Positions 6,526 through 21,301 of a stretch of DNA of 48,082 nucleotides are shown piece by piece. The position numbers and the translations under genes were made by a program. Under the pieces are notes generated by a model, which worked only from the letters and a program-made list of their open reading frames with translations, ran no database searches and had not been told where the DNA came from. The first letter of the stretch is position 1, and each line of letters begins with the position of its first letter. This DNA is from Campylobacterales bacterium (GTDB lineage: Bacteria; Campylobacterota; Campylobacteria; Campylobacterales; JALSKU01), in NCBI GenBank assembly GCA_026988685.1, contig JALSKU010000153.1, forward strand, positions 1 through 48,082, read 5' to 3'.

Positions 6526-7687
6526 TCTGCTTTTTTTTGGTGTAACTCTTTCTGCAGATAGTTCACTTTTATCAAAAAGGCAAAATGATATTTTGCAAAA
6601 TGAGCAGAAACAAAATATAAAGAGCAGTGACATACTTAAGCTTAATTGGATCAACCCAATAACCGCTACACTTTCTCGCTCAAAAAGCGATAAGTTAAAT
6701 CCCTCGGTAACAAGCGATAGCTTTACAATTTCGCTCAATCAGCCTATATTTAAAAGCGGAGGGATATATTATGCTATAAAGTATGCCAAGGCCAACAGAG
6801 AGTTTTTGGAACTTAATACAAAGTTAAAAAAGAGATCACTTATAAAAAATGTCCTTTTTTTGATAGCTTCTTTAAAAGATTTGGATCTTAAAATAGAAAA
6901 AGAGAGGCTATTGATAGAAAATGCGGATATTGATATAAAAAGAAAAAGAGAGCAATTTTTAAGTGGAGTGCTTGATAGTAGTTTTTTGGATAACGCGATG
7001 CTTAACAAGAATTCACTCCAGATGGCTCTTTTGGATATGGAAGCTAGTAAATTCGATCTTTTAAAAAGCTTGAAAGATTTGAGTGATATTGATTATAAAA
7101 GTTTTTCTTTTACTCATATGAAGCTTTTAAATATAGATGATTTCTTATCGGAAAATTTAAATATAAAAGATGCTTTGGCCAACTCAAAACAGACAAAATA
7201 TATCAAAAAAATGACAATATCCAACTATTTTCCAACGATTTCACTCTTTGCCAATTATAACTATAGTAAAAGTGACAATGGTATCTTTAACAGCAAAGAT
7301 AGCTACAAGCAGTATGGACTAAGAATTTCCATGCCTCTTTTTGATATAAATAGAGGTAAAAATATAGAGTTGCAAAGGCTAAAGTATCTAAAGAGTAAAC
7401 TAATGCTAAATGATACTAAACAAAAAGAGAGAGATCTTTTTAACTCGGTGATAAAAAAAGTTGAGATTTACAACAAGAAAATAAAACTCTCAAAAGAGCA
7501 GGCTAAGCTATACTCGTCACTTTTAAAAACTACAAAAAATCTCTATGATGCCGGAGAAAAAACTATATATGATGTCAAAACTTTAAAAAACTCTCTTAAA
7601 AGAAGTAGAATCGATGAAAAGATATATAGATATGAGATAGATAAAATTTTACTAGATCTCTACGAGCATATAGAAGAGAAAAAATGA
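6503..7687 (+). CDS. TolC-family outer-membrane efflux protein
   Basis: GTG start followed by a signal peptide (MRLKIFCSLLFFGVTLSA). The protein is coiled-coil rich with a repeated OEP-like architecture (LNQPIFKSGGIYYAIKYAKA...). It overlaps the argD end by 23 nt. Confidence 0.5.
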   Translation: MRLKIFCSLLFFGVTLSADSSLLSKRQNDILQNEQKQNIKSSDILKLNWINPITATLSRSKSDKLNPSVTSDSFTISLNQPIFKSGGIYYAIKYAKANREFLELNTKLKKRSLIKNVLFLIASLKDLDLKIEKERLLIENADIDIKRKREQFLSGVLDSSFLDNAMLNKNSLQMALLDMEASKFDLLKSLKDLSDIDYKSFSFTHMKLLNIDDFLSENLNIKDALANSKQTKYIKKMTISNYFPTISLFANYNYSKSDNGIFNSKDSYKQYGLRISMPLFDINRGKNIELQRLKYLKSKLMLNDTKQKERDLFNSVIKKVEIYNKKIKLSKEQAKLYSSLLKTTKNLYDAGEKTIYDVKTLKNSLKRSRIDEKIYRYEIDKILLDLYEHIEEKK

Positions 7688-8718
7688 AGAGACAATTTTC
7701 TTTATTTATAAGTGAGTGGCTTTATGGTGAGAGCGGATACTATAGTCGCTTTAAAAAGATAGGAAAAGAGGGGGATTTTTATACGGCAGTCAGCACTACG
7801 CCCTTTTTTGGCGGAGCTATCGCAAAAAGAGTTTTATCGGTAATAGAGAGCGGCTTTTTATCAAAAAATTGCACTATCGTAGAGGTAGGAGCTCATCAGG
7901 GGTATCTGTTGGCAGATATAGTGCAATTTATCTACGCTCTAAGTCCAAATTTGCTAAAAACTATTCGTTTTGCTGTCATTGAGCCCCAAGAAGAGATACT
8001 AAAAGAGCAAAAAAGGTATCTAAAAAACTCTTTTGGAGATGATGTTAATTTTAGTTTTTTTAAGAGTTTTGAAGAGGTAGAGTTAAAGGAAGCATTTATA
8101 GTTGCTAATGAGATATTTGATGCGTTTCCTTGTGAAGTTATAAAAGATGAGAGTATGCTTTTTGTTGAAGATTTTGATTTTAACTTTTATAAGCAGACCA
8201 AGGAGGTAGAGAAATTATCAAAAAGATATGGCATAAAACGGGGAGAGGTAGCCATAGGATATGAAAAGTTTGCAAAAAAGTTGGCAAACAAGATAGAAAA
8301 GTTTGAGTTTCTTGCCTTTGACTATGGTGAGCTAGAGCATAGGGGAGAGTATTCGCTAAGAGTTTATGACGCACACAAGGTGTATCCATTTTTTTCTTTA
8401 ACAAAATTTGCAGAAGATAAAGAGTTAAAAAAGAGCGGAGTGAGCATTGATAAGCTTTATAAAAGAAGTGATATAACTTATGATGTTTTTTTTACCCATT
8501 TGATAGATGCCTTCAAAAATGCCGGAGTAAAGAAGGAGAGCTATAAAACCCAAATGAGCGCACTTGTGGAGTTTGGCATCATTGATCTTCTTGAAATCTT
8601 GAAGGAAATGAAGGGCGAAAGAGCGTATCTAAACGAATTAAACAGAGTCAAAATCTTAATAGACCCAACTTTTATGGGAGAGAGATTTAAGTCTGTTATC
8701 TTTAGAAAAGATATTTAA
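7684..8718 (+). CDS. SAM-dependent methyltransferase, MidA/NDUFAF7 (DUF185) family
   Basis: 344 aa containing GDFYTAVSTTPFFGGAIAK and IVEVGAHQGYLLADI (SAM-binding motif I region), both characteristic of the DUF185/MidA family. An ATGA start/stop overlap couples it to the upstream gene. Confidence 0.65.
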   Translation: MKRQFSLFISEWLYGESGYYSRFKKIGKEGDFYTAVSTTPFFGGAIAKRVLSVIESGFLSKNCTIVEVGAHQGYLLADIVQFIYALSPNLLKTIRFAVIEPQEEILKEQKRYLKNSFGDDVNFSFFKSFEEVELKEAFIVANEIFDAFPCEVIKDESMLFVEDFDFNFYKQTKEVEKLSKRYGIKRGEVAIGYEKFAKKLANKIEKFEFLAFDYGELEHRGEYSLRVYDAHKVYPFFSLTKFAEDKELKKSGVSIDKLYKRSDITYDVFFTHLIDAFKNAGVKKESYKTQMSALVEFGIIDLLEILKEMKGERAYLNELNRVKILIDPTFMGERFKSVIFRKDI

Positions 8719-9098
8719 TGAAATAGAGGCAACTCTTGATTTGGATACTTTGTTTTTAGGGTTGCAACTGCTATAGCGTACTCTTTTTCATGAGTTATAG
8801 ATAGCGAAGTTTCTACTATATCGTAAGAGTTGATAACTCTTTTTGGAAGGGTGAAGTAGGGGGCATTTTTTTTAGTTTTGTGTAGTTTGATATCTAAAAA
8901 AGAGAGCTCTTTTGATATGCCTATGCCTAAAGCTTTTGAGATAGCCTCTTTTGCAGCATAAAAACCGCTGATACTCTCTATCTTATCTTTGCAAAGAGCT
9001 ATCTCATCTTCGTCTAAAAACCTTTCTAAAGCTTTTTTGCCAAATCTATCATAAAAATCTTGAATTCTGGAAATCTTAACTAAGTCTACCCCGATCAT
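8715..9098 (-). CDS. acpS: Holo-[acyl-carrier-protein] synthase
   Basis: 127 aa. MIGVDLVKISRI..., FYAAKEAISKALG and SLSITHEKEYAIAVA are typical of AcpS. It lies 5 nt downstream of fliL, as in Campylobacter. Confidence 0.85.
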   Translation of the reverse strand: MIGVDLVKISRIQDFYDRFGKKALERFLDEDEIALCKDKIESISGFYAAKEAISKALGIGISKELSFLDIKLHKTKKNAPYFTLPKRVINSYDIVETSLSITHEKEYAIAVATLKTKYPNQELPLFH

Positions 9099-9103
9099 CT
9101 ATA

Positions 9104-9643
9104 TTATTGGACAACAAACTCGGTGAAAAAGATATTTTTTACATTTCCATCAGCCAATACGGCATTGATTTTATCTACAAGCTCATCTTTTAGCTTCTCT
9201 TTTCCTCTGCTGGTACTAACTTCTTGAAAAGTTTTTGATGATAGTGTTCTTATGATGATATCCCTTATAAGTGGTTTTTTCTTATCCAGTTCAGTTGTAA
9301 GCTCAGGTCCACTAAGCTCCAAATCCATCTTTGTTTTTAAAAATCTAGTTCCACCTTGGCTTAGAAGATTTACTATAAACTGATCTAGCGGATAAACAGG
9401 ACCTATCTGCAAAAGATCTGAGTTTCTGACTACCTTTTTTTTACTCATTTTCGCTTGGTTATTTTGCGTAGTCTGAGTAGCAGCATTTGCCTGAGGCTCA
9501 TTGCCGTTGTCACTTAATAGAAAATATGCGGCAATACCGCCACCAACCAAAATGAGAACAAGCAGTATAATAATGATAATAAGTACTAAATTTGAACCTG
9601 ATTTTTTCTCTTTTTTCTCTTCTTCATTTTTTTCTTCAGCCAT
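9104..9643 (-). CDS. fliL: Flagellar basal-body-associated protein FliL
   Basis: 179 aa with a charged N-terminus, a single TM segment (LVLIIIIILLVLILVGGGIAAYFLL), a FliL core and the typical C-terminal FTEFVVQ. Confidence 0.8.
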   Translation of the reverse strand: MAEEKNEEEKKEKKSGSNLVLIIIIILLVLILVGGGIAAYFLLSDNGNEPQANAATQTTQNNQAKMSKKKVVRNSDLLQIGPVYPLDQFIVNLLSQGGTRFLKTKMDLELSGPELTTELDKKKPLIRDIIIRTLSSKTFQEVSTSRGKEKLKDELVDKINAVLADGNVKNIFFTEFVVQ

Positions 9644-9675
9644 AAATCACCCTTTACTATAGTATCTTTATATGG

Positions 9676-13689: not shown

Positions 13690-15163
13690 AGTTTATGAAG
13701 CGGGTGCAAGAGCTAAAGCAAAAGCAATAGAGCATGAGGCTGAACTTGTTTTAAGAAATGCCAAGTTAAAAGCAAAAGATCTCGAAATAGAGGCAAAAAA
13801 AGAGTATGAAGAGAGATCTAACGAGCTTAAAAAAGAGTATGAGCAAAAGCTTGCCCAACTGGAGAAAAAAGATGAAGCTTTAAATGATCTTTTTAAAGAT
13901 GAACTTAAAAACATAACAAAAGAGAAAGATGAGATAAAGGCGTTAAAAAAAGATATAGAGCAAAGAGCAAATGAAGTTGAGGAGCTTAAAAAAGAGTATA
14001 AAGTTAAACTTGATGATGCTTTGAAAGTCCTTGAGAGATCAGCCGGACTGACTGAAAAAGAGGCAAGGGAGATAGTTCTTAAAAAAGTTGAAGAAAATTC
14101 AAGAGCCGAGATAGCTCATATCGTAAGAAAGTATGAAGAGCAGGCAAAACAGGAGGCTAAGAAAAAGGCTAACTTTATACTTGCTCAAGCTACTACAAGG
14201 TATGCAGGAGACTACGCGGCGGAGAGACTTATAAATGTTGTAAATATACCAAATGATGACCTAAAAGGAAGGATCATAGGAAAAGAGGGAAGAAATATAA
14301 AAACTCTTGAGATGCTTCTAGGGGTAGATGTTATCATAGATGATACTCCAAATGCTATCATACTTAGTAGCTTTAATCTCTACAGGAGGGCAATTGCCGC
14401 AAAGGTTATAGAGCTTTTGGTAGAAGATGGACGAATACAACCGGCAAGGATAGAGGATATTTATGAAAAAGTAAAAGCTGAGTTTGAGCAAAGTCTTCTT
14501 GAAGAGGGTCAGGATATAGTTATAGATATGGGGCTTACTAAAATTCATCCTGAGATAGTAAAACTTATAGGAAGACTAAAATTTAGAGCAAGTTATGGAC
14601 AAAATGCACTCGGCCACTCTTTGGAAGTAGCACACCTTGCAGGTATCATAGCAGCTGAACTTGGCGGGGATGAACAGCTTGCAAAAAGGGCCGGACTACT
14701 TCATGATATAGGCAAGGCTTTGACTCACGACTTTGCAGGAAGCCATGTGGACTTGGGAGCAGATCTTTGCAAAAGATACAAAGAGCATCCGGTTGTTATC
14801 AACGCCATATATGCTCACCACGGACATGAAGAGCCTACAAGTGTTGAGGCTGCTGCAGTATGTGCTGCCGATACGCTGAGTGCCGCTAGACCGGGAGCTA
14901 GGAGAGAGGTATTGGAAGCCTTTTTAAAAAGAGTTCAAGATATAGAAGCTATAGCAACATCAAAAGAGGGTATAAAACAGGCTTATGCTATAAATGCAGG
15001 AAGAGAAGTAAGAGTTATAGCAAATGCAAAACTTGTAAATGATGATGAGGCTGTTCTTATCTCAAAAGAGATAGCAAAAGAGATAGAGGAGAAAGTTCAA
15101 TATCCCGGAGAGATAAAAGTAAATGTTATAAGAGAGCTTAGAGCTGTAGGATACGCGAGGTAG
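13595..15163 (+). CDS. rny: Ribonuclease Y
   Basis: N-terminal TM anchor (VEISIAAAGLIVGGVLGAII), a long coiled coil, a KH domain (GRIIGKEGRNIKTLE) and an HD domain (LLHDIGKA...HH). Confidence 0.95.
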   Translation: MFVEISIAAAGLIVGGVLGAIIQKKLESSKFEVYEAGARAKAKAIEHEAELVLRNAKLKAKDLEIEAKKEYEERSNELKKEYEQKLAQLEKKDEALNDLFKDELKNITKEKDEIKALKKDIEQRANEVEELKKEYKVKLDDALKVLERSAGLTEKEAREIVLKKVEENSRAEIAHIVRKYEEQAKQEAKKKANFILAQATTRYAGDYAAERLINVVNIPNDDLKGRIIGKEGRNIKTLEMLLGVDVIIDDTPNAIILSSFNLYRRAIAAKVIELLVEDGRIQPARIEDIYEKVKAEFEQSLLEEGQDIVIDMGLTKIHPEIVKLIGRLKFRASYGQNALGHSLEVAHLAGIIAAELGGDEQLAKRAGLLHDIGKALTHDFAGSHVDLGADLCKRYKEHPVVINAIYAHHGHEEPTSVEAAAVCAADTLSAARPGARREVLEAFLKRVQDIEAIATSKEGIKQAYAINAGREVRVIANAKLVNDDEAVLISKEIAKEIEEKVQYPGEIKVNVIRELRAVGYAR

Positions 15164-15168
15164 ATTTT

Positions 15169-15906
15169 ATGGATAGTGAAGATAGTATCGAATTAGACAG
15201 CGAGGAGTATTCTCCTGTCTATTTCGAACTTTCTGAACTCTCTTTGAATTTCTTAGAGGATTTTTTTAAAAATGAGATAGAGGTATTGGTTTTCAATACA
15301 AACTTTCTTCAAAATAATGGCTTTCAATATCAAAAGGATATAGACTTTACCCAGTTGTATAGATTTTTAAAAGTAGAATATAATACAATCTACTCCATAG
15401 ATCCCAAAGTTACAGATGCATTAATCGAAAAATTTTACAGAGACATAGAGTATCTTTTTAGATTTTACACCAAATTTAAAGAAAAAAGATCAAATATAAA
15501 CTCCGTATACAGCAATTTTTTGAACAAGAATGGAGGAGTAGCCTCTATAGGACAGAAAATATTTAAAAAAGATTTGGATAACAAGGAGATAGAGGAACTT
15601 GATGATATACTTAAAAGCGAGTTTGAAAGTAGTTTTTTAAAGGAGTATGAAGAGATAAAAAGCGAATTAAAAAGAGTTATAAATACCAAAAGTTACTATT
15701 TTGATGCTCTTTTATGGAAAGAGGCAAGAAAGAGCAGAAGCATTAATGATTTTTTTAAACAGTTGGTCAGATTAAATATCAAAAGTAGCAGTGATCTTAA
15801 TATAAAGTTATTTATCGTTCAGTATTTAAACAGTGTTGATTTAAATCATGTTAAAAATCCAAAGTGGCATGATTACCTTCAAAAGGTTATAAAGGTGATC
15901 GACTAA
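15169..15906 (+). CDS. Hypothetical protein
   Basis: 245-aa ORF located 5 nt after rny and coupled to the next ORF through a TAATG overlap. I recognised no motif. Confidence 0.5.
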   Translation: MDSEDSIELDSEEYSPVYFELSELSLNFLEDFFKNEIEVLVFNTNFLQNNGFQYQKDIDFTQLYRFLKVEYNTIYSIDPKVTDALIEKFYRDIEYLFRFYTKFKEKRSNINSVYSNFLNKNGGVASIGQKIFKKDLDNKEIEELDDILKSEFESSFLKEYEEIKSELKRVINTKSYYFDALLWKEARKSRSINDFFKQLVRLNIKSSSDLNIKLFIVQYLNSVDLNHVKNPKWHDYLQKVIKVID

Positions 15907-16430
15907 TGATAGTTAAAAATACCATCTATACCGAAAATGAGATAGCTAGAATTTTAGAAGCTGGTGAAAGACGCAAACTTACTGCTTCCGAAAAGAAGCT
16001 TTTGGAGATATATGACAAGATATATCTTTTTGATGGTATTGGTGAAGAGGATATCATAAAGATTGTTAAAAATGTCTCTTTTAAAAAGGTAAAAAAGGGA
16101 GATGTTATTTTACAAGAAGGGGAGAAATCACCCGAGATATATTTTATACTAACCGGAAAAGTTGTAGTAGTTACAGAAAAAAATAAGATAGTAGCCACGA
16201 TAGGCTCCGGATATATGTTTGGAGAGATGACATTTGTAACAAAACACTCAAGAAGTGCAACCATACTTAGCTATGATGATAGAACCGTGCTTTTATCGTT
16301 TGAAATAGATGAAGACAAATGTAGTGAAGTATATGCTTTTCCTTTTGTTAAGTTATATCAAAATATCGCACTTGATTTAGCTCGAAAGATAGAAAAAACA
16401 AATAAAAAAATTAAAGCTGGAAATAGATAA
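15906..16430 (+). CDS. Cyclic-nucleotide-binding (cNMP/Crp-type) domain protein with no recognisable output domain
   Basis: 174 aa. The segment GDVILQEGEKSPEIYFILTGKVVVV...GYMFGEMTFV...RSATI matches the cNMP-binding beta-barrel and phosphate-binding cassette pattern (FGE...R[ST]A). There is no C-terminal HTH. Confidence 0.65.
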   Translation: MIVKNTIYTENEIARILEAGERRKLTASEKKLLEIYDKIYLFDGIGEEDIIKIVKNVSFKKVKKGDVILQEGEKSPEIYFILTGKVVVVTEKNKIVATIGSGYMFGEMTFVTKHSRSATILSYDDRTVLLSFEIDEDKCSEVYAFPFVKLYQNIALDLARKIEKTNKKIKAGNR

Positions 16431-16443
16431 CCTTAAAAGATAA

Positions 16444-16470
16444 GGCCCTGTAAAACCAACTGTGTAAATC
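16444..16470. repeat. IS256-family left terminal inverted repeat
   Basis: GGCCCTGTAAAACCAACTGTGTAAATC. It matches the reverse complement of 17861-17887 except for two 1-nt indels and one mismatch. Confidence 0.8.
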
Positions 16471-16529
16471 CAAAAAAACAACCAGTATGATAAAATATAA
16501 ACTGGATAAACTAAGCAAGGATTTACACA

Positions 16530-17825
16530 ATGAGTATTTTAAATAAAGAAGAGTTAAGAAGACAGATAAAAGAAGGTAAAGGTATCAATATTGAAGATAT
16601 CTTAGATGAATTTAAAGGTATGCTCCAAGAAGTATACCAAACTGCTAGTGAAGTAGAGCTTACAGACCACTTAGGCTATAACAAAAACAATAAATCAGAT
16701 AATCCAAACTACCGCAATAGATATAATAAAAAAGACTAAAATCAAAGTATGGTGAAATAGATGTAGCAATTCCAAGAGATAGAGACTCTACTTTTGAACC
16801 CAAGCTAATAAAAAAGAGACAAACTCTAATAGAGGGGGCAGAAGATTTAATTCTGTCACTATATACCAAAGGTATGAGTGTAAGAGATATATAGCATCAT
16901 CTTGATGATCTATACGGTTATGAACTCTCAGAACAAACAATATCGAATATAACAGAGGCTATAATAGACAAAGCCAAAGAGTGGCAGAATCGTCCTTTAG
17001 AAGCAATCTATCCAATTATATTTATGGATGCTACCGTTTTAAAAATAAGAGTAGATAGAGTAGTTAAAAATATAGCTGCATATATAATGCTAGGAATTAC
17101 TCTTGATGGTAAAAAAGAGATTATTGGTATTTGGATAGGAGAGAATGAGACAAGTAAATACTGGTTAACACTTCTTAACGAACTAAAAAATAGAGGTGTT
17201 GAGGATGTTCTAATATTTGCCATAGATGGTCTTAATGGCTTTAATCAAGCAATAGAAGCGGTTTATCCCAAAGCTGAGATACTTCTGCTTGCAGTGATGT
17301 GAGCGTAGCGAAACGAAAAAGATGTATAGTGCATCGTCTGAGCGAAGCGACAACCCCGCAACGAAGTGAGGACAAATAAGAAGTTCTTTGAGATATGTAT
17401 CATGGAAAGATAGAAAAGCAGTGGCAAATGACTTAAGATCGATATATACTGCACCAACTGAAGAAGATGGGCAGCTTGCCCTTAGAGAATTTAATGATAT
17501 TTGGGGTAAAAAATATCCTCATATTACTCAATCTTGGCAATCCAACTGGGGTGAACTTGCAACTTTTTATAAATACCCAGATGCTATAAAAAAGTTGATT
17601 TATACCACAAATCCAATAGAATCGTTAAATTCATCAATCAAAAGAAGAACTAAATCCAAAGGCTCATTCCCTACGGTTGATTCAGCTTTTAAAATGCTAT
17701 ATCTTGCTACACAGGAGGTTCAAAACAAATGGAAGGTTAACAGTTTAAGAAATTGGAGTGAAATTTACCCTCAGCTTTCTCACAGAGAGTGCAAGCACAA
17801 GGCATATTTTTTCAAGATATTATGA
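16530..17825 (+). pseudogene. IS256-family (mutator-type) transposase, disrupted
   Basis: The pieces read as one IS256-like protein: ...HLGYNKNNKSDNPNYRNRYNKK / RLKSKYGEIDVAIPRDRDSTFEPKLIKKRQ...GMSVRDI*HHLDDLYG...PIIFMDATVLKIRVD...IFAIDGLNGFNQAIEAVYPKAEI / KRCIVH / QIRSSLRYVSWKDRK...IYTTNPIESLNSSIKRRTK. There are four lesions:
- a frame change at the A-run 16728-16733;
- an in-frame TAG at 16892-16894;
- an insertion of about 35 nt at 17282-17316;
- a 38-nt insertion at 17336-17373. Confidence 0.8.
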
Positions 17826-17860
17826 TAAAATATGCAAAGTAGATTTAGAGGGTGTGAGGT

Positions 17861-17887
17861 GGTTTACACAGTTTGGTTTACAGGGCC
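17861..17887. repeat. IS256-family right terminal inverted repeat
   Basis: GGTTTACACAGTTTGGTTTACAGGGCC, the reverse-complement partner of 16444-16470. Confidence 0.8.
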
Positions 17888-18040
17888 GCTACTTTTTTTC
17901 TTATTCTTATTTTGTTTTTCATTATTTTCTATCTTTCTTTCGGGGGCTATATCGTTACTGTCGCAAACCGGGCAACAACACCAATCAGCACTTCCACTCT
18001 TCCATCTAAAACCACAATTTATACAAACCAAAATATACAC
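17864..18040 (-). CDS. Small zinc-ribbon protein (58 codons as it stands); its 3' end is fused to or truncated by the IS256 right inverted repeat
   Basis: This ORF is not in the supplied track because it is too short. An AGGAG lies 6 nt upstream of the GTG at 18040. The translation is VYILVCINCGFRWKSGSADWCCCPVCDSNDIAPERKIENNEKQNKNKKKSS, followed by GPVNQTV* encoded by the IS repeat. CxxC...CPVC is a zinc-ribbon signature. A perfect TATAAT (minus strand, 18071-18076) lies about 30 nt upstream. Confidence 0.45.
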   Translation of the reverse strand: MYILVCINCGFRWKSGSADWCCCPVCDSNDIAPERKIENNEKQNKNKKKSSGPVNQTV

Positions 18041-18070
18041 TATTAGCTCCTATTGATAAATTTAGTAGCA

Positions 18071-18093
18071 ATTATATGACTATTTTTTGTCAA
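18071..18093 (-). promoter_or_regulatory. Putative promoter for the zinc-ribbon mini-ORF
   Basis: The minus strand reads TTGACAAAAAATAGTCATATAAT: a perfect -10 TATAAT (18071-18076) abutting a TGAC-N8-GTCA palindrome. It overlaps the stop region of the upstream CARF-HEPN gene. Confidence 0.3.
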
Positions 18094-19469
18094 TTTTTGT
18101 CGGCTATCAATTTTTTGTAGTTTTTTATCAGAGTGGATAGCTCTTTTTTGGCATTACTTACTTCGTAAGAACTGTTTCCATGAGAGAGGTTATTTCTTAA
18201 ATCTTCAACACGCTTTATGAGTTCGATAAGATCTTCATTATCTTGTTGCTTTAACTTTTCTATGATAATATTTTTTATATTTTCTTTTGAGTTTAGATTT
18301 TTCTGAGATAGTTCAAGTTTAAAACCTTCTAACTCAATCATACTTAAAATATGCTCTGGAATCTCTCTTTTTAGTTTCTGTTTTTTCTTTTGTAGAGATT
18401 TTTTTTGTGATGCGGTTAATGCTTTAGAAGGATTAAATAAATATGGCCCATGAAAATTTTCTTGATTTTTTATAATATTTTTTGATTGATGTGACAGTTC
18501 ATAGAGATTAAAATTATCTTTGCTTTTATATTCTTCAATATGCTCTTTTATTTTATTGTCTAGCTCCTCAAGTTTTTTAGCACAATATAGACCTACGGAT
18601 TCATTTAAAAGTGTTATAGAGTTAAGTAGGTATTCTCTATCTTTTAATAATTTGGAAAGTTCAAAATATTTTTTGTAATCCCGGTTATTTTTTAACGAAT
18701 ACAAATCTTCCAAATGTTTAATGACAGTATCGATATATGTAGAAAATGAAGCAATATGTCTATCTTTTTTTAGAGTTTTTAGCTCTACGATGCTTTTTTG
18801 TAATAGATTATCATCTCCTTCAAATAGAGTCTTTATGGAGTTTGCTAAAATATGTCCGGAGATTATTCTTAAATTATCAACAAGTTCTTGATACTTTTCG
18901 TTTTTAAAAACTACATGGTTGCCTATAGTGTAGTTGTCATTAAAATTTTTTAGCACAAAAGCGAGCTTCGACAATCCAATATATTCTGATAAATCTACAA
19001 TTTCATATCTCTTATTTTTGTCAATTTCCTTTGCAAAAAGTATATGCTCTATCTTTTCTGGATTGTCTATAGAGGCTATTATGATATTAATAATCATTAA
19101 AATTGGTATATGTCTAAAACCATGAGTCAAATCTACGATAAATGTTTCATATCTATCATCTTTTAATACTTTTGCCAACTCTTGAAATATTTGATTGTAG
19201 TCGGTATCATCTTTTATCTCTATCGCATTTTCCATCACTTCCGTATTATAATCTATACTCTTAAGGGTCTTTTTTTGTTGCTCTTTTGTCTCTTTTGTTG
19301 AGATTGGTATGATTTCGCAATCAGGGAAAATATCCATAAGAAGAGGTAAAGTATTTATGTGCTCTATCTCTTTATTGTCGCTTAATATCTCGAGATTTTT
19401 AGAAAATGTATATTTTGCTCTATTTTTTCCTCCTACCGTTCCCAATATGGTTATAACTGCTTTTCTCAT
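18090..19469 (-). CDS. Stand-alone Csx1/Csm6-like protein: N-terminal CARF domain (DxTHG / TM1812-like family) and C-terminal HEPN RNase motif
   Basis: 459 aa. The N-terminus (MRKAVITILGTVGGKNRAKYTF) has the CARF beta1-Gly-loop pattern (xLGTxxx...Y). The exact DxTHG signature is present: FIVDLTHGFRHIP. A long Lys/Glu/Asn-rich helical middle region follows. The C-terminus carries LIKRVEDLRNNLSHGNSS, which fits the HEPN Rx4H motif in its R-N-x-x-x-H form, as in Csx1/Csm6. An AAGGTG Shine-Dalgarno lies 5 nt upstream of the ATG. Confidence 0.7.
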   Translation of the reverse strand: MRKAVITILGTVGGKNRAKYTFSKNLEILSDNKEIEHINTLPLLMDIFPDCEIIPISTKETKEQQKKTLKSIDYNTEVMENAIEIKDDTDYNQIFQELAKVLKDDRYETFIVDLTHGFRHIPILMIINIIIASIDNPEKIEHILFAKEIDKNKRYEIVDLSEYIGLSKLAFVLKNFNDNYTIGNHVVFKNEKYQELVDNLRIISGHILANSIKTLFEGDDNLLQKSIVELKTLKKDRHIASFSTYIDTVIKHLEDLYSLKNNRDYKKYFELSKLLKDREYLLNSITLLNESVGLYCAKKLEELDNKIKEHIEEYKSKDNFNLYELSHQSKNIIKNQENFHGPYLFNPSKALTASQKKSLQKKKQKLKREIPEHILSMIELEGFKLELSQKNLNSKENIKNIIIEKLKQQDNEDLIELIKRVEDLRNNLSHGNSSYEVSNAKKELSTLIKNYKKLIADKN

Positions 19470-20610
19470 TTGTCACCTTTGCAATAAGATAGTATTTTTT
19501 ATTTGCAAACTCTCTTATAAACTGATCATTTTCCCATTTGCCTTTAATAATTCTTCCGTTATTATATCTAAAAATACCATACCCTTCTCTTTTATCATTT
19601 TTAAAATCTCCTCTGTACTGCTCACCGTTTGTATATTTTAATTTTCCATATCTGTGAAATAATCCGTTTTTCCAATACCCTGTGTAACAATCATAGTAAA
19701 CATTTCCACTTTTTAAGTCATAGTTTTTTTTGTTAAATTTATAAATTCCAAACCCATTTCTCAATCCATCTTCAAAACAACCAATATATATATCTCCGTT
19801 ATGAAATATTGTTTTTCCCTTGGCAAAAGGTAGCCCGTTTTTTAGTGAGCCTCTGTATCGATCTCCATTTGCATATTGAATATTTACTCCAAAATAATAA
19901 TAGTTACCATTCATATATTTATAATTTTTGATTTGGGTTTGCTCGATCCTGTTTATGATGGTTTCGTTAAAATTTGCAACTATATCTATATTGTATCTCA
20001 TAAATGGTTGAGCTTTCATACCAAATACACTATATAGTGTTTTTAAAGTTTGGTAAGGGTCTTTATTGTCTTTTCTATTTTTTAAAATTGAGATAATTTC
20101 TTCACATTGAGTGTCAATCGTATATTTTAAAAATATTCCGTATGCGGTTAAGTCTACCATCTGCATCTTTAGTAACGGTATCTCTTTGCTTAGAGTATCT
20201 ATTTTTTTATCATGTGCACTCCTGTCTCTATATTCCCCATATAGAGCTAAAGCTATTATAATTGATGCTAATGTAAAAGTGATAGTGCTATCAAAGAAGA
20301 AAGAAGCTATTAATGCAATTATAATTATCCAAAAGTAGGTAGAAAAGGAGTAAGAAGGCTTAAAACTATTTCTCTTTTTATATTCAAAACTATCATATAT
20401 CCACTGTTTTACTGTGGGGATATTACTTAGGTCTATTTTAGAGATATCGTTATCGTTGACATATAGTTGTTGAAAAAGTTTTGCGATATAGGTATTGGTA
20501 TTAATTGCATCACTTCTTTCCCTGTACTCTTCGGCATCATTTTTTATCTTATCAAGCTTATTATTGACTTCTGAAACTTCAAAGTATGTTAACATGTCAA
20601 ATAATTCCAT
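19420..20610 (-). CDS. Membrane protein with a 2-TM hairpin and C-terminal MORN repeats
   Basis: 396 aa. Its parts are:
- a soluble N-terminus of about 90 aa;
- the hydrophobic hairpin YFWIIIIALIASFFFDSTITFTLASIIIALALYG;
- a region of about 110 aa that I could not assign;
- 4-5 MORN-type repeats (YRGSLKNGLPFAKGKTIF / YIGCFEDGLRNGFGIYKF / YTGYWKNGLFHRYGKLKY / YRGDFKNDKREGYGIFRY / IKGKWENDQF).
An AAGGAG Shine-Dalgarno lies 6 nt upstream. The 3' end overlaps the CARF-HEPN gene by 50 nt. Confidence 0.7.
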   Translation of the reverse strand: MELFDMLTYFEVSEVNNKLDKIKNDAEEYRERSDAINTNTYIAKLFQQLYVNDNDISKIDLSNIPTVKQWIYDSFEYKKRNSFKPSYSFSTYFWIIIIALIASFFFDSTITFTLASIIIALALYGEYRDRSAHDKKIDTLSKEIPLLKMQMVDLTAYGIFLKYTIDTQCEEIISILKNRKDNKDPYQTLKTLYSVFGMKAQPFMRYNIDIVANFNETIINRIEQTQIKNYKYMNGNYYYFGVNIQYANGDRYRGSLKNGLPFAKGKTIFHNGDIYIGCFEDGLRNGFGIYKFNKKNYDLKSGNVYYDCYTGYWKNGLFHRYGKLKYTNGEQYRGDFKNDKREGYGIFRYNNGRIIKGKWENDQFIREFANKKYYLIAKVTNEKSSYNHIGNGRRKK

Positions 20611-20639
20611 CGAAAACTCCTTTTAAAACTTTTAATGGA

Positions 20640-20672
20640 ATTATATATGATAAAAATGACAAAAAATGTCAA
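20640..20672 (-). promoter_or_regulatory. Putative promoter/operator of the MORN / CARF-HEPN operon
   Basis: The minus strand reads TTGACATTTTTTGTCATTTTTATCATATATAAT. The -35-like TTGACA is part of a TGAC-N7-GTCA palindrome, followed by a TATATAAT -10-like box about 30 nt upstream of the ATG. The -35/-10 spacing is longer than canonical. Confidence 0.3.
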
Positions 20673-20680
20673 TTAAACTT

Positions 20681-21301
20681 CTATAACCCCTCAAGTATAA
20701 TATTATAAAGATTTTCTACTTCATTATCATTAAGTAGGATGGAGTTTTTTTCGTCGAAAAAGAGCTCTATCTTTTTTTTGTCAAATCCATTTTCGCTTTT
20801 TAGACAAGTTGAACAGGCTGGAAGAAAGGCTCTGGTTAAGACCACTTTGCTTTCAATATTTTTTTCGCAGATGAAGCAGGAAAAATCGTTATGGAGTCTT
20901 CCTTCAAACTCCAAAAGTTTTGCGTATGACTCTATGACAACTCTTTTGGGGTGAGATTTTTCGAGGTAGAGGGATGTCTCTTCAAGTAGTTTATAGTAAA
21001 AACTATCTACCTCATTGACATCTCTTAGGTGCTTAAAAAGAAGCTGTAAAAATTGCTGCCAGATGTAGTATCTCTCCCTTTTTAGAAGCCATTTAAAGTT
21101 TAGTAAAGAGACATTTCTTAGTTGCTTTAAATTTTCTCTGTTTGTCGGGTGTGCTTCGAAGTCTATCTTGTAGCCTAGCAGAAGGTTGGAGTGTCTTGCT
21201 CCATAAAATCTATATAGTATTTTTATCCTGTTTTCGGTAAGAATAGTTACCAAAAGGTCTTCATCTCTAACTTTTTGAGTGTTTAGTATATAGCCTTGCA
21301 T
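20681..21301 (-). CDS. recO: DNA repair protein RecO (short epsilonproteobacterial form)
   Basis: 206 aa. MQGYILNTQKVRDEDLLVTILTENRIKILYRFYGARHS is a typical RecO OB-fold N-terminus, and a C-terminal Cys cluster is present (CFICEKN...CSTC). Confidence 0.75.
   Translation of the reverse strand: MQGYILNTQKVRDEDLLVTILTENRIKILYRFYGARHSNLLLGYKIDFEAHPTNRENLKQLRNVSLLNFKWLLKRERYYIWQQFLQLLFKHLRDVNEVDSFYYKLLEETSLYLEKSHPKRVVIESYAKLLEFEGRLHNDFSCFICEKNIESKVVLTRAFLPACSTCLKSENGFDKKKIELFFDEKNSILLNDNEVENLYNIILEGL

Follow-up and report, generated by a model that had tools for sequence, protein, structure and literature searches.

The 48,082-nucleotide stretch of Campylobacterales DNA analyzed here (contig JALSKU010000153.1, positions 1 to 48,082; hereafter the window) encodes a 396-amino acid (aa) membrane-anchored MORN-repeat protein, P0001, on the minus strand at 19420–20610, and the open reading frame (ORF) of this gene runs directly into that of a Csx1/Csm6-type CARF-HEPN RNase at 18090–19469 on the same strand. 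P0001 belongs to a small, undescribed family of membrane proteins that, going by all recorded names, is restricted to Campylobacterota and that carries a modular C-terminal "reader". We put at about 50% the probability that P0001 is a defence-island membrane scaffold that became co-transcribed with an orphan RNase following a rearrangement.

Under this reading, P0001 would be anchored in the inner membrane by a hairpin, with all of its soluble parts facing the cytoplasm. Its working part would be a conserved, non-enzymatic helical core, and its C-terminus would bind proteins through exchangeable repeats, here approximately five MORN units. The family as a whole would provide a scaffold or adaptor at the membrane for an envelope-associated module that defence and mobile islands carry. 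In the window, a rearrangement in an islet that holds a decayed copy of IS256 would have set the MORN gene against an orphaned CARF-HEPN gene of the type III CRISPR kind, with the native MORN stop codon lost and the ORF now running 50 nt into the RNase gene. Since the ORF reads into the RNase gene, the two genes would be co-transcribed, in a pairing that is unique and probably recent.

The MORN-Repeat Protein

The P0001 ORF is intact, with an ATG start, 396 codons, and a GGAG ribosome-binding site (RBS) at 20617–20620, 6 nt 5′ of the ATG. A promoter-like site on the same strand (ATGATA-17-TATAAT, 20702–20730) lies in the 3′ end of recO approximately 90 nt upstream of the gene start and is a candidate by consensus match only (10 of 12 positions), and no terminators were predicted on the minus strand between or after the MORN and CARF-HEPN genes. 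Pfam MORN (PF02493) matched P0001 with E 3.9e-14 (52 bits; the cut-off is 22.5), and three stretches were over threshold. By eye, five units could be placed in register at residues 246–268, 269–291, 292–325, 326–348 and 349–371 (19498–19875, minus strand), roughly the C-terminal third of the protein; the third unit carries an 11-aa insertion and the fifth is a partial cap. AlphaFold2 (AF2) modelled this region as beta-hairpins with nine strands at residues 242–359, at a predicted local distance difference test score (pLDDT) below 50 and with an alignment that barely covers the MORN part, and the best Foldseek matches for it were to MORN1 and junctophilin structures and were weak (E 0.03–0.06 for MORN1).

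The first-pass annotation of this DNA, made from the sequence alone, described MORN repeats as modules for both membrane-lipid and protein interaction. We do not retain the lipid-binding part of that view, as the study behind the best fold matches saw TbMORN1 bind neither membranes nor vesicles and describes the repeats as protein-protein and dimerisation modules (PMC7725318). Like TbMORN1, the junctophilins and MORN4, P0001 has about five tandem 23-residue units of the YxGxWxxGxxxGxG type that are predicted to form beta-hairpins. Unlike in these proteins, the repeats of P0001 are an appendage to a bacterial membrane core and are exchanged for Sel1, TPR or DUF4116, or lost, in its relatives; judged by its repeats P0001 is an ordinary MORN protein, and it is the bacterial membrane core that is unusual.

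By Kyte-Doolittle peaks, the sole hydrophobic stretch of P0001 lies at approximately residues 86–126 and holds a two-helix hairpin (residues 89–126; 20233–20346, minus strand) with a 3-residue DST loop, AF2 placing helices at 89–105 and 109–141 with the same loop between them. Four K/R residues flank the hairpin on each side and none fall in the loop, so that both soluble parts of P0001 are predicted to be cytoplasmic by the positive-inside rule, giving a predicted two-pass hairpin inner-membrane protein with an N-in/C-in topology. A hairpin with K/R-rich flanks was found in 21 of 23 family members. By a crude hydropathy measure, the P0001 hairpin is 41 residues long and among the shortest in a family range of 21–54, and due to this short length it is possible that it is re-entrant instead of fully membrane-spanning. 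The first-pass annotation had called the ORF, the hairpin and four to five C-terminal repeats, and all were recovered here by ORF calling, Pfam, hydropathy and AF2; its placement of the N-terminal domain and the MORN part on one side of the membrane also agrees with the K/R flanks, which predict that side to be the cytoplasm.

A Conserved Helical Core

P0001 residues 1–228 are one conserved helical core of approximately 230 aa, made up of an N-terminal helical segment (residues 1–88 with helices at 3–51 and 64–80; 20347–20610, minus strand), the membrane hairpin, and a second helical segment (residues 127–228; 19927–20232, minus strand). AF2 was confident over the whole of this region (block means 67–96), with pLDDT values of 67–96 for the N-terminal segment, which is conserved in all family members, and 83–95 for the middle one. 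A word-indexed search with the whole of P0001 gave 182 matches, all but one limited to the MORN third, and the lone full-core match, P0002, aligns to P0001 residues 1–370 without exactly the hairpin. An exhaustive HMMER search with residues 1–235 against 1.84 billion cluster representatives recovered 28 proteins; these representatives are clustered at 50% identity, and the alignment and hairpin counts given here are over 23 members. P0001 itself is a single member on a single contig in the searched collection. All organism names given are Sulfurovum, Helicobacteraceae or Campylobacterales, and the product is called a "hypothetical protein" in every case. A phage or plasmid origin of the family was considered and rejected, as neither a scan of viral contigs nor tblastn searches of phage and plasmid collections gave a match.

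Across the family, the N-terminal segment carries the motifs MSxWxFLTxxExSxxNxKL... and LFQxLYxxxND, and the middle segment carries L-[ST]-A-Y-G-x-[YF]-L-K-[WY]-x-x-D (of the L-S-A-Y-G-x-Y-L-K-W-Y-x-D type) and Y-x-[LVI]-F-[DG]-[LM] (of the Y-x-L-F-D-L type). Only G158, K162 and F196, all in the middle segment, are invariant in the family alignment. What follows the core varies: approximately half of the members have no C-terminal domain, three have MORN, two have Sel1, and TPR, DUF4116 and SHOCT occur once each, and this end of the protein reads as a swappable protein-binding repeat module. The hairpin is precisely missing from P0002 (L001 1353–3365) and from P0260, which shows that the core also occurs in soluble form; in P0002, the MORN repeats are followed by a long TPR extension.

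The N-terminal and middle regions (residues 1–90 or 126–235) had been put forward in the first-pass annotation as possible sites of a hidden enzymatic domain, a candidate that we rejected in favour of the single helical core. In P0001 and 23 relatives the core had no match in Pfam, NCBIfam, PADLOC or PHROGs, the core profile matched only designed transmembrane (TM) helices among PDB sequences, and Foldseek of P0001 against PDB and BFVD found nothing for the core at E <= 1e-3; over the libraries, PDB and Foldseek together, nothing fell below E 1e-3 except MORN and composition-driven TM matches. With no library match and only three invariant residues, there is no basis for a cyclase, nucleotidyltransferase or peptidase in the core, which reads, from its sequence, as a structural or binding module that is non-enzymatic. 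A nucleotide-sensing domain (CARF, SAVED, Csx23-type or similar) was likewise not found by Pfam, NCBIfam, PADLOC or structural matching in the core of P0001 or in those of two relatives, P0262 and P0264, that are returned to below.

Genomic Contexts of the Family

Including the window, 12 family contexts were informative, and they are mostly defence or mobile islands; a metagenome scan for the core family gave only two loci. Lipoprotein or signal-peptide genes, several of them homologous to each other, are found in the same operon in seven of the 11 contexts outside the window. In P0241, the closest MORN-bearing relative, and in P0250, a 111-aa lipoprotein gene sits exactly at the position that the RNase gene has in the window. 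Among the other neighbours are HipBA, RHH-ParE, type I restriction-modification (R-M), Dcm with MUG113, a DndB-like protein, nSTAND3, nSTAND6 and a resolvase. Given that the family lies in defence or mobile islands, usually beside lipoprotein or secreted-protein genes, we read it as probably acting at the membrane, as scaffold or adaptor, within an envelope-associated module.

An integrase-like protein of 306–322 aa (~54% identical) is common to three of the contexts (L084 10654–11622, minus strand; L087 1791–2477, minus strand; L100 3007–3927, plus strand), where it is found near three different family members. It has no Pfam match and shows a C-terminal HxxR...H...Y pattern recalling tyrosine recombinases, which suggests that the family may be carried on a mobile element. 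A 64-aa protein (L100 6373–6567) and an 88-aa protein (L001 1052–1318), each next to a different family member, share homology (E 4e-6) and may represent one more small partner of the module.

The same lipoprotein and secreted-protein neighbours would recur if P0001 were a housekeeping protein of envelope or membrane organisation in Campylobacterota, acting with periplasmic lipoproteins and unrelated to defence, and the window flanks (rny, recO and gltBD) would fit such a role as well; the neighbourhood would then be irrelevant. This explanation is improbable, however, as the family is patchy and very thinly spread (28 representatives at 50% identity), lies where the DNA is low in GC or mobile, among integrase-like, toxin-antitoxin, R-M and STAND genes, and swaps its C-termini among members, whereas a core housekeeping gene is expected to be widespread and syntenic.

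The CARF-HEPN RNase and Its Relatives

The 459-aa protein encoded downstream of P0001 is a CARF-HEPN RNase, as the first-pass annotation had proposed: PADLOC CARF2--CARF_HEPN covers it end to end (E 2.5e-100), and NCBIfam TIGR02549 (DxTHG motif domain) also matches it. In an alignment of 35 sequences that includes the window copy, the CARF motif DxTHG (D113, H116, G117) and the HEPN motif R425-N-N-L-S-H430 (R-N-x-L-x-H) are both invariant, and the RNase in the window is intact and looks functional. Its product starts with MRKAVITILG and the consensus of 34 homologues is MxKAVITILG, which identifies the ATG at 19469 as the true start.

A single-protein query for further loci had given none, and a genome scan using an alignment of RNase relatives gave 79, mostly from Campylobacterota (Sulfurovum, Campylobacter concisus, Arcobacter, Helicobacter cetorum and Nautiliaceae). 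No member of the P0001 family was found in these loci (0/79), whether by tblastn using the MORN protein or by the core profile hidden Markov model (HMM) run against every ORF. Neighbours were clustered for 50 of the 79, with the RNase gene recovered in 47; a 126-aa Csx20 was present in 31 of the 47, a WYL regulator in 30 and a TM+CARF (Cam1-like) protein in 16, and type III-D Cas7, other RAMPs, Cas2, Cas1 and a reverse transcriptase-Cas1 fusion (RT-Cas1) also recurred. The nearest relatives that could be placed show this pattern too: P0123 (56% identical) comes after RAMPs, a WYL/WCX gene and one resembling csx20, and a type III remnant is found within a few kb of P0133 (50% identical). As the partners of its relatives are Csx20, WYL and type III proteins, the RNase probably does not depend on P0001. 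The pairing in the window is unique.

In Campylobacter concisus and related metagenome-assembled genomes, the CARF-HEPN relative has a 264-aa TM+CARF (Cam1-like) gene upstream and csx20 downstream (L004, L006, L008–L013, L015, L017, L019, L021, L023, L025, L027 and L030; ~7197–9670 in most), so that in these 16 Campylobacter loci a membrane effector, and a true TM+CARF one, holds the slot that the MORN gene has in the window. At L091 8268–12253, a CARF-HEPN relative (50% identical) stands between a 539-aa protein that ends in a DnaJ domain, before it, and an RVT_3 (RNase H-like) protein, after it, with a type III remnant with cas2 a few kb away.

The Gene Overlap and the Low-GC Islet

The MORN and CARF-HEPN genes overlap by 50 nt, out of frame, at 19420–19469, and the CARF-HEPN gene has its own Shine-Dalgarno-like site, AAGGTG, inside the MORN gene at 19474–19479 (minus strand), 4 nt 5′ of its ATG. 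Both features had been read correctly in the first-pass annotation, which took them to argue for obligate co-expression. Part of that argument stands, as the lack of any intergenic space makes co-transcription of the two genes close to unavoidable. Obligate coupling is nonetheless doubtful: no orthologous MORN/CARF-HEPN pair was found in the searched proteins or in the 79 RNase-relative loci, no RNA structure was found to mask the RBS of the CARF-HEPN gene (folding energy no different from shuffles, z 0.35), and the overlap itself looks like a junction. P0001 runs approximately 24 residues beyond the end of its relative P0241, which stops at about residue 372, and this tail (residues 372–396 plus the stop codon; 19420–19497, minus strand), which reads into the next gene, is non-conserved and modelled as disordered (pLDDT 24–29). 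Together, the unconserved and disordered tail, the lack of an RBS-masking RNA structure and the insertion sequence (IS) remnant next door make the overlap look like the scar of a rearrangement junction, which explains it better than designed coupling does. A long gene overlap should be treated with this caution, as it can be a rearrangement scar and not a designed coupling.

Both genes lie in a low-GC islet (15100–20680) of approximately 5.5 kb of accessory genes between rny and recO, with 27–32% GC versus 35–42% in the flanking rny and gltB (up to 42% in rny, ~35% in recO and gltB). The genes flanking the islet are housekeeping genes (RNase Y, RecO, GltB/GltD, FtsY and RadA). Convergent with the CARF-HEPN gene is an IS256/Mutator-family transposase (16530–17825, plus strand) in three ORF fragments that match positions 17–67, 165–249 and 262–377 of the 379 in Pfam Transposase_mut; it is an old, decayed insertion. 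The 48-kb window held no other cas genes, no CRISPR or repeat array, no homologues or remnants of Csx20, WYL, RAMP or Cas10, and none of the lipoprotein partners of the relatives or their remnants. The RNase is an orphan outside any CRISPR locus, and the small islet around it is decaying.

The state of the islet raises the question of whether P0001 is itself a decaying remnant without function, a MORN gene that lost its partners and its stop codon and is becoming a pseudogene. It is a single member on a single contig in the searched collection, its tail and overlap are aberrant, one of its MORN units is broken by an insertion, the adjacent IS element is decayed, and no lipoprotein partner is left in the window. 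Set against this are an intact 396-codon ORF with a good GGAG RBS, the retention of all core motifs including G158, K162 and F196, and a core that AF2 models confidently, and we regard loss of function as very unlikely.

A Possible Link to CARF Nucleases

Several points weigh against the reading of P0001 as a scaffold brought to the RNase by rearrangement. Counting the window, three of the 12 contexts adjoin a CARF effector, more than a purely accidental model easily gives. P0262 and P0264, which are 28% identical, each have a convergent Card1 CARF nuclease 22–27 nt beyond their operon. The P0262 operon (signal-peptide protein, lipoprotein and P0262; L095 4694–7937, Helicobacteraceae bacterium 4484_230) lies between the cas6-cas10-csm2-RAMPs of a type III-A locus and the convergent card1. 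P0264 belongs to a different three-gene operon with a convergent card1 within 22 nt and a WYL/WCX regulator and an nSTAND6 gene nearby. The two Card1 nucleases match CARF4--CARF_PDDEXK at E ~1e-72 each and are 48% identical to each other. Same-strand overlapping genes, moreover, are usually functionally related. Most family contexts come from short metagenomic contigs with many neighbours outside the view, the lipoproteins and signal peptides were called by eye from N-termini and lipoboxes, and the term "scaffold" derives, for the whole family, from missing catalytic signatures and the nature of the C-terminal repeats, that is, from sequence features.

Some of these points favour P0001 being a true accessory of cyclic oligoadenylate (cOA) signalling, a membrane partner of CARF nucleases, with a type III system at another place in the genome as the source of the cOA. 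P0001 might then use its cytoplasmic parts, MORN or helical, to tether the RNase to the inner membrane or to regulate it there, or it might add a membrane-perturbing arm to the nuclease response, by analogy with Csx28 for Cas13b. The overlap and co-transcription of the two genes, the intact CARF and HEPN motifs of the RNase, and the presence of the family in defence islands are all consistent with such a role, and the predicted cytoplasm-facing topology would fit the binding of a cytoplasmic nuclease. P0262 and P0264 independently adjoin Card1, a CARF effector different from the one in the window. Membrane proteins are also established as type III effectors (Cam1, Csx23 and CorA: PMC11229360, PMC10808066, PMC11014256; Cap1: 10.1101/2025.11.13.688252).

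The remaining evidence points the other way. A family member is found in 0 of the 79 loci of the same CARF-HEPN family, the cores have no PADLOC match and no domain known to sense nucleotides (CARF, SAVED or other), the card1 genes are convergent and so not co-transcribed with the family operons, and the pairing in the window looks like a recent junction. The window pairing does not count as independent evidence in any case, since the gene was examined because of that pairing. The adjacency of Card1 to two deeply diverged members seems to us more than chance would give even in defence islands, and the linkages in L095 and L097 may stem from a single ancestral event. The first-pass annotation had held that homologues occurring widely without a CARF or nuclease neighbour would point to an accidental juxtaposition. 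This is largely what we found, with no CARF gene or nuclease neighbour in nine of the 12 contexts and the family missing from all 79 RNase loci, but not entirely, given the two members beside Card1. A role in cOA signalling is therefore a tentative proposal, and with similar reserve the core could be seen as a new family of sensor-less membrane partners for CARF nucleases, Csx1/Csm6-type here and Card1 in Helicobacteraceae and related contigs.

A loss of card1 in L094 was also considered and rejected: the gene is interrupted by a run of N (a scaffolding gap, 7064–7163) in a contig that is otherwise 100% identical to L095. Gene callers give a spurious 99-aa ORF at this gap.

Comparison with Known Membrane Effectors

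To our knowledge, all characterised membrane effectors of type III/cOA systems (Cam1, Csx23, Cap1 and CorA) carry their own ligand-binding domain. Like them, the P0001 family consists of small inner-membrane proteins with a soluble part predicted to be cytoplasmic, found beside cOA-pathway genes in 3 of 12 contexts. Unlike them, it has no CARF, CARF-like, SAVED or Csx23-type sensor and no PADLOC match, and it is not linked to any of the 79 type III or CARF-HEPN loci. As a sensor domain was not found, we did not file P0001 among the Cam1, Csx23, Cap1 or CorA families.

Csx28 is a membrane accessory of the HEPN RNase Cas13b; it contains a HEPN-like domain that is divergent, and its linkage to cas13b is conserved. 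P0001 is similarly a predicted membrane protein encoded beside a HEPN RNase, and offers a possible analogy for how collateral RNase activity could be coupled to the membrane; unlike for Csx28, the linkage of P0001 is unique to a single sequence, and no sequence or fold similarity between the two was detected. The downstream protein resembles the Csx1/Csm6 nucleases that are found with Csx20 and WYL partners in its end-to-end CARF2--CARF_HEPN match and its DxTHG and Rx4H motifs, and its locus differs from theirs in having no Csx20, WYL, RAMP, Cas10 or CRISPR array within 48 kb and in having a non-canonical upstream gene.

If the link to CARF nucleases were true, a sensor-less family beside two kinds of CARF nuclease would suggest a different logic, in which the membrane protein might tether the nuclease or pass the signal to the membrane. 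Collateral nuclease activity might then be localised to the inner membrane or coupled to envelope lipoprotein modules, and a non-CARF membrane component would be added to type III/cOA defence in Campylobacterota. Should the link prove accidental, the finding of a new membrane protein family specific to Campylobacterota would still hold, as would that of an orphaned, intact Csx1/Csm6 RNase outside any CRISPR locus.

Other Genes of the Islet

On the plus strand at 15169–16430, the islet also encodes a 245-aa protein without a family match whose gene overlaps, by an ATGA stop-start, that of a 174-aa stand-alone cyclic nucleotide monophosphate (cNMP)-binding protein. The best PADLOC matches of the 174-aa protein are to the sensor domains of Pycsar/TIR effectors (E 5.8e-17), and the pair could be another signalling-type defence remnant in the islet.

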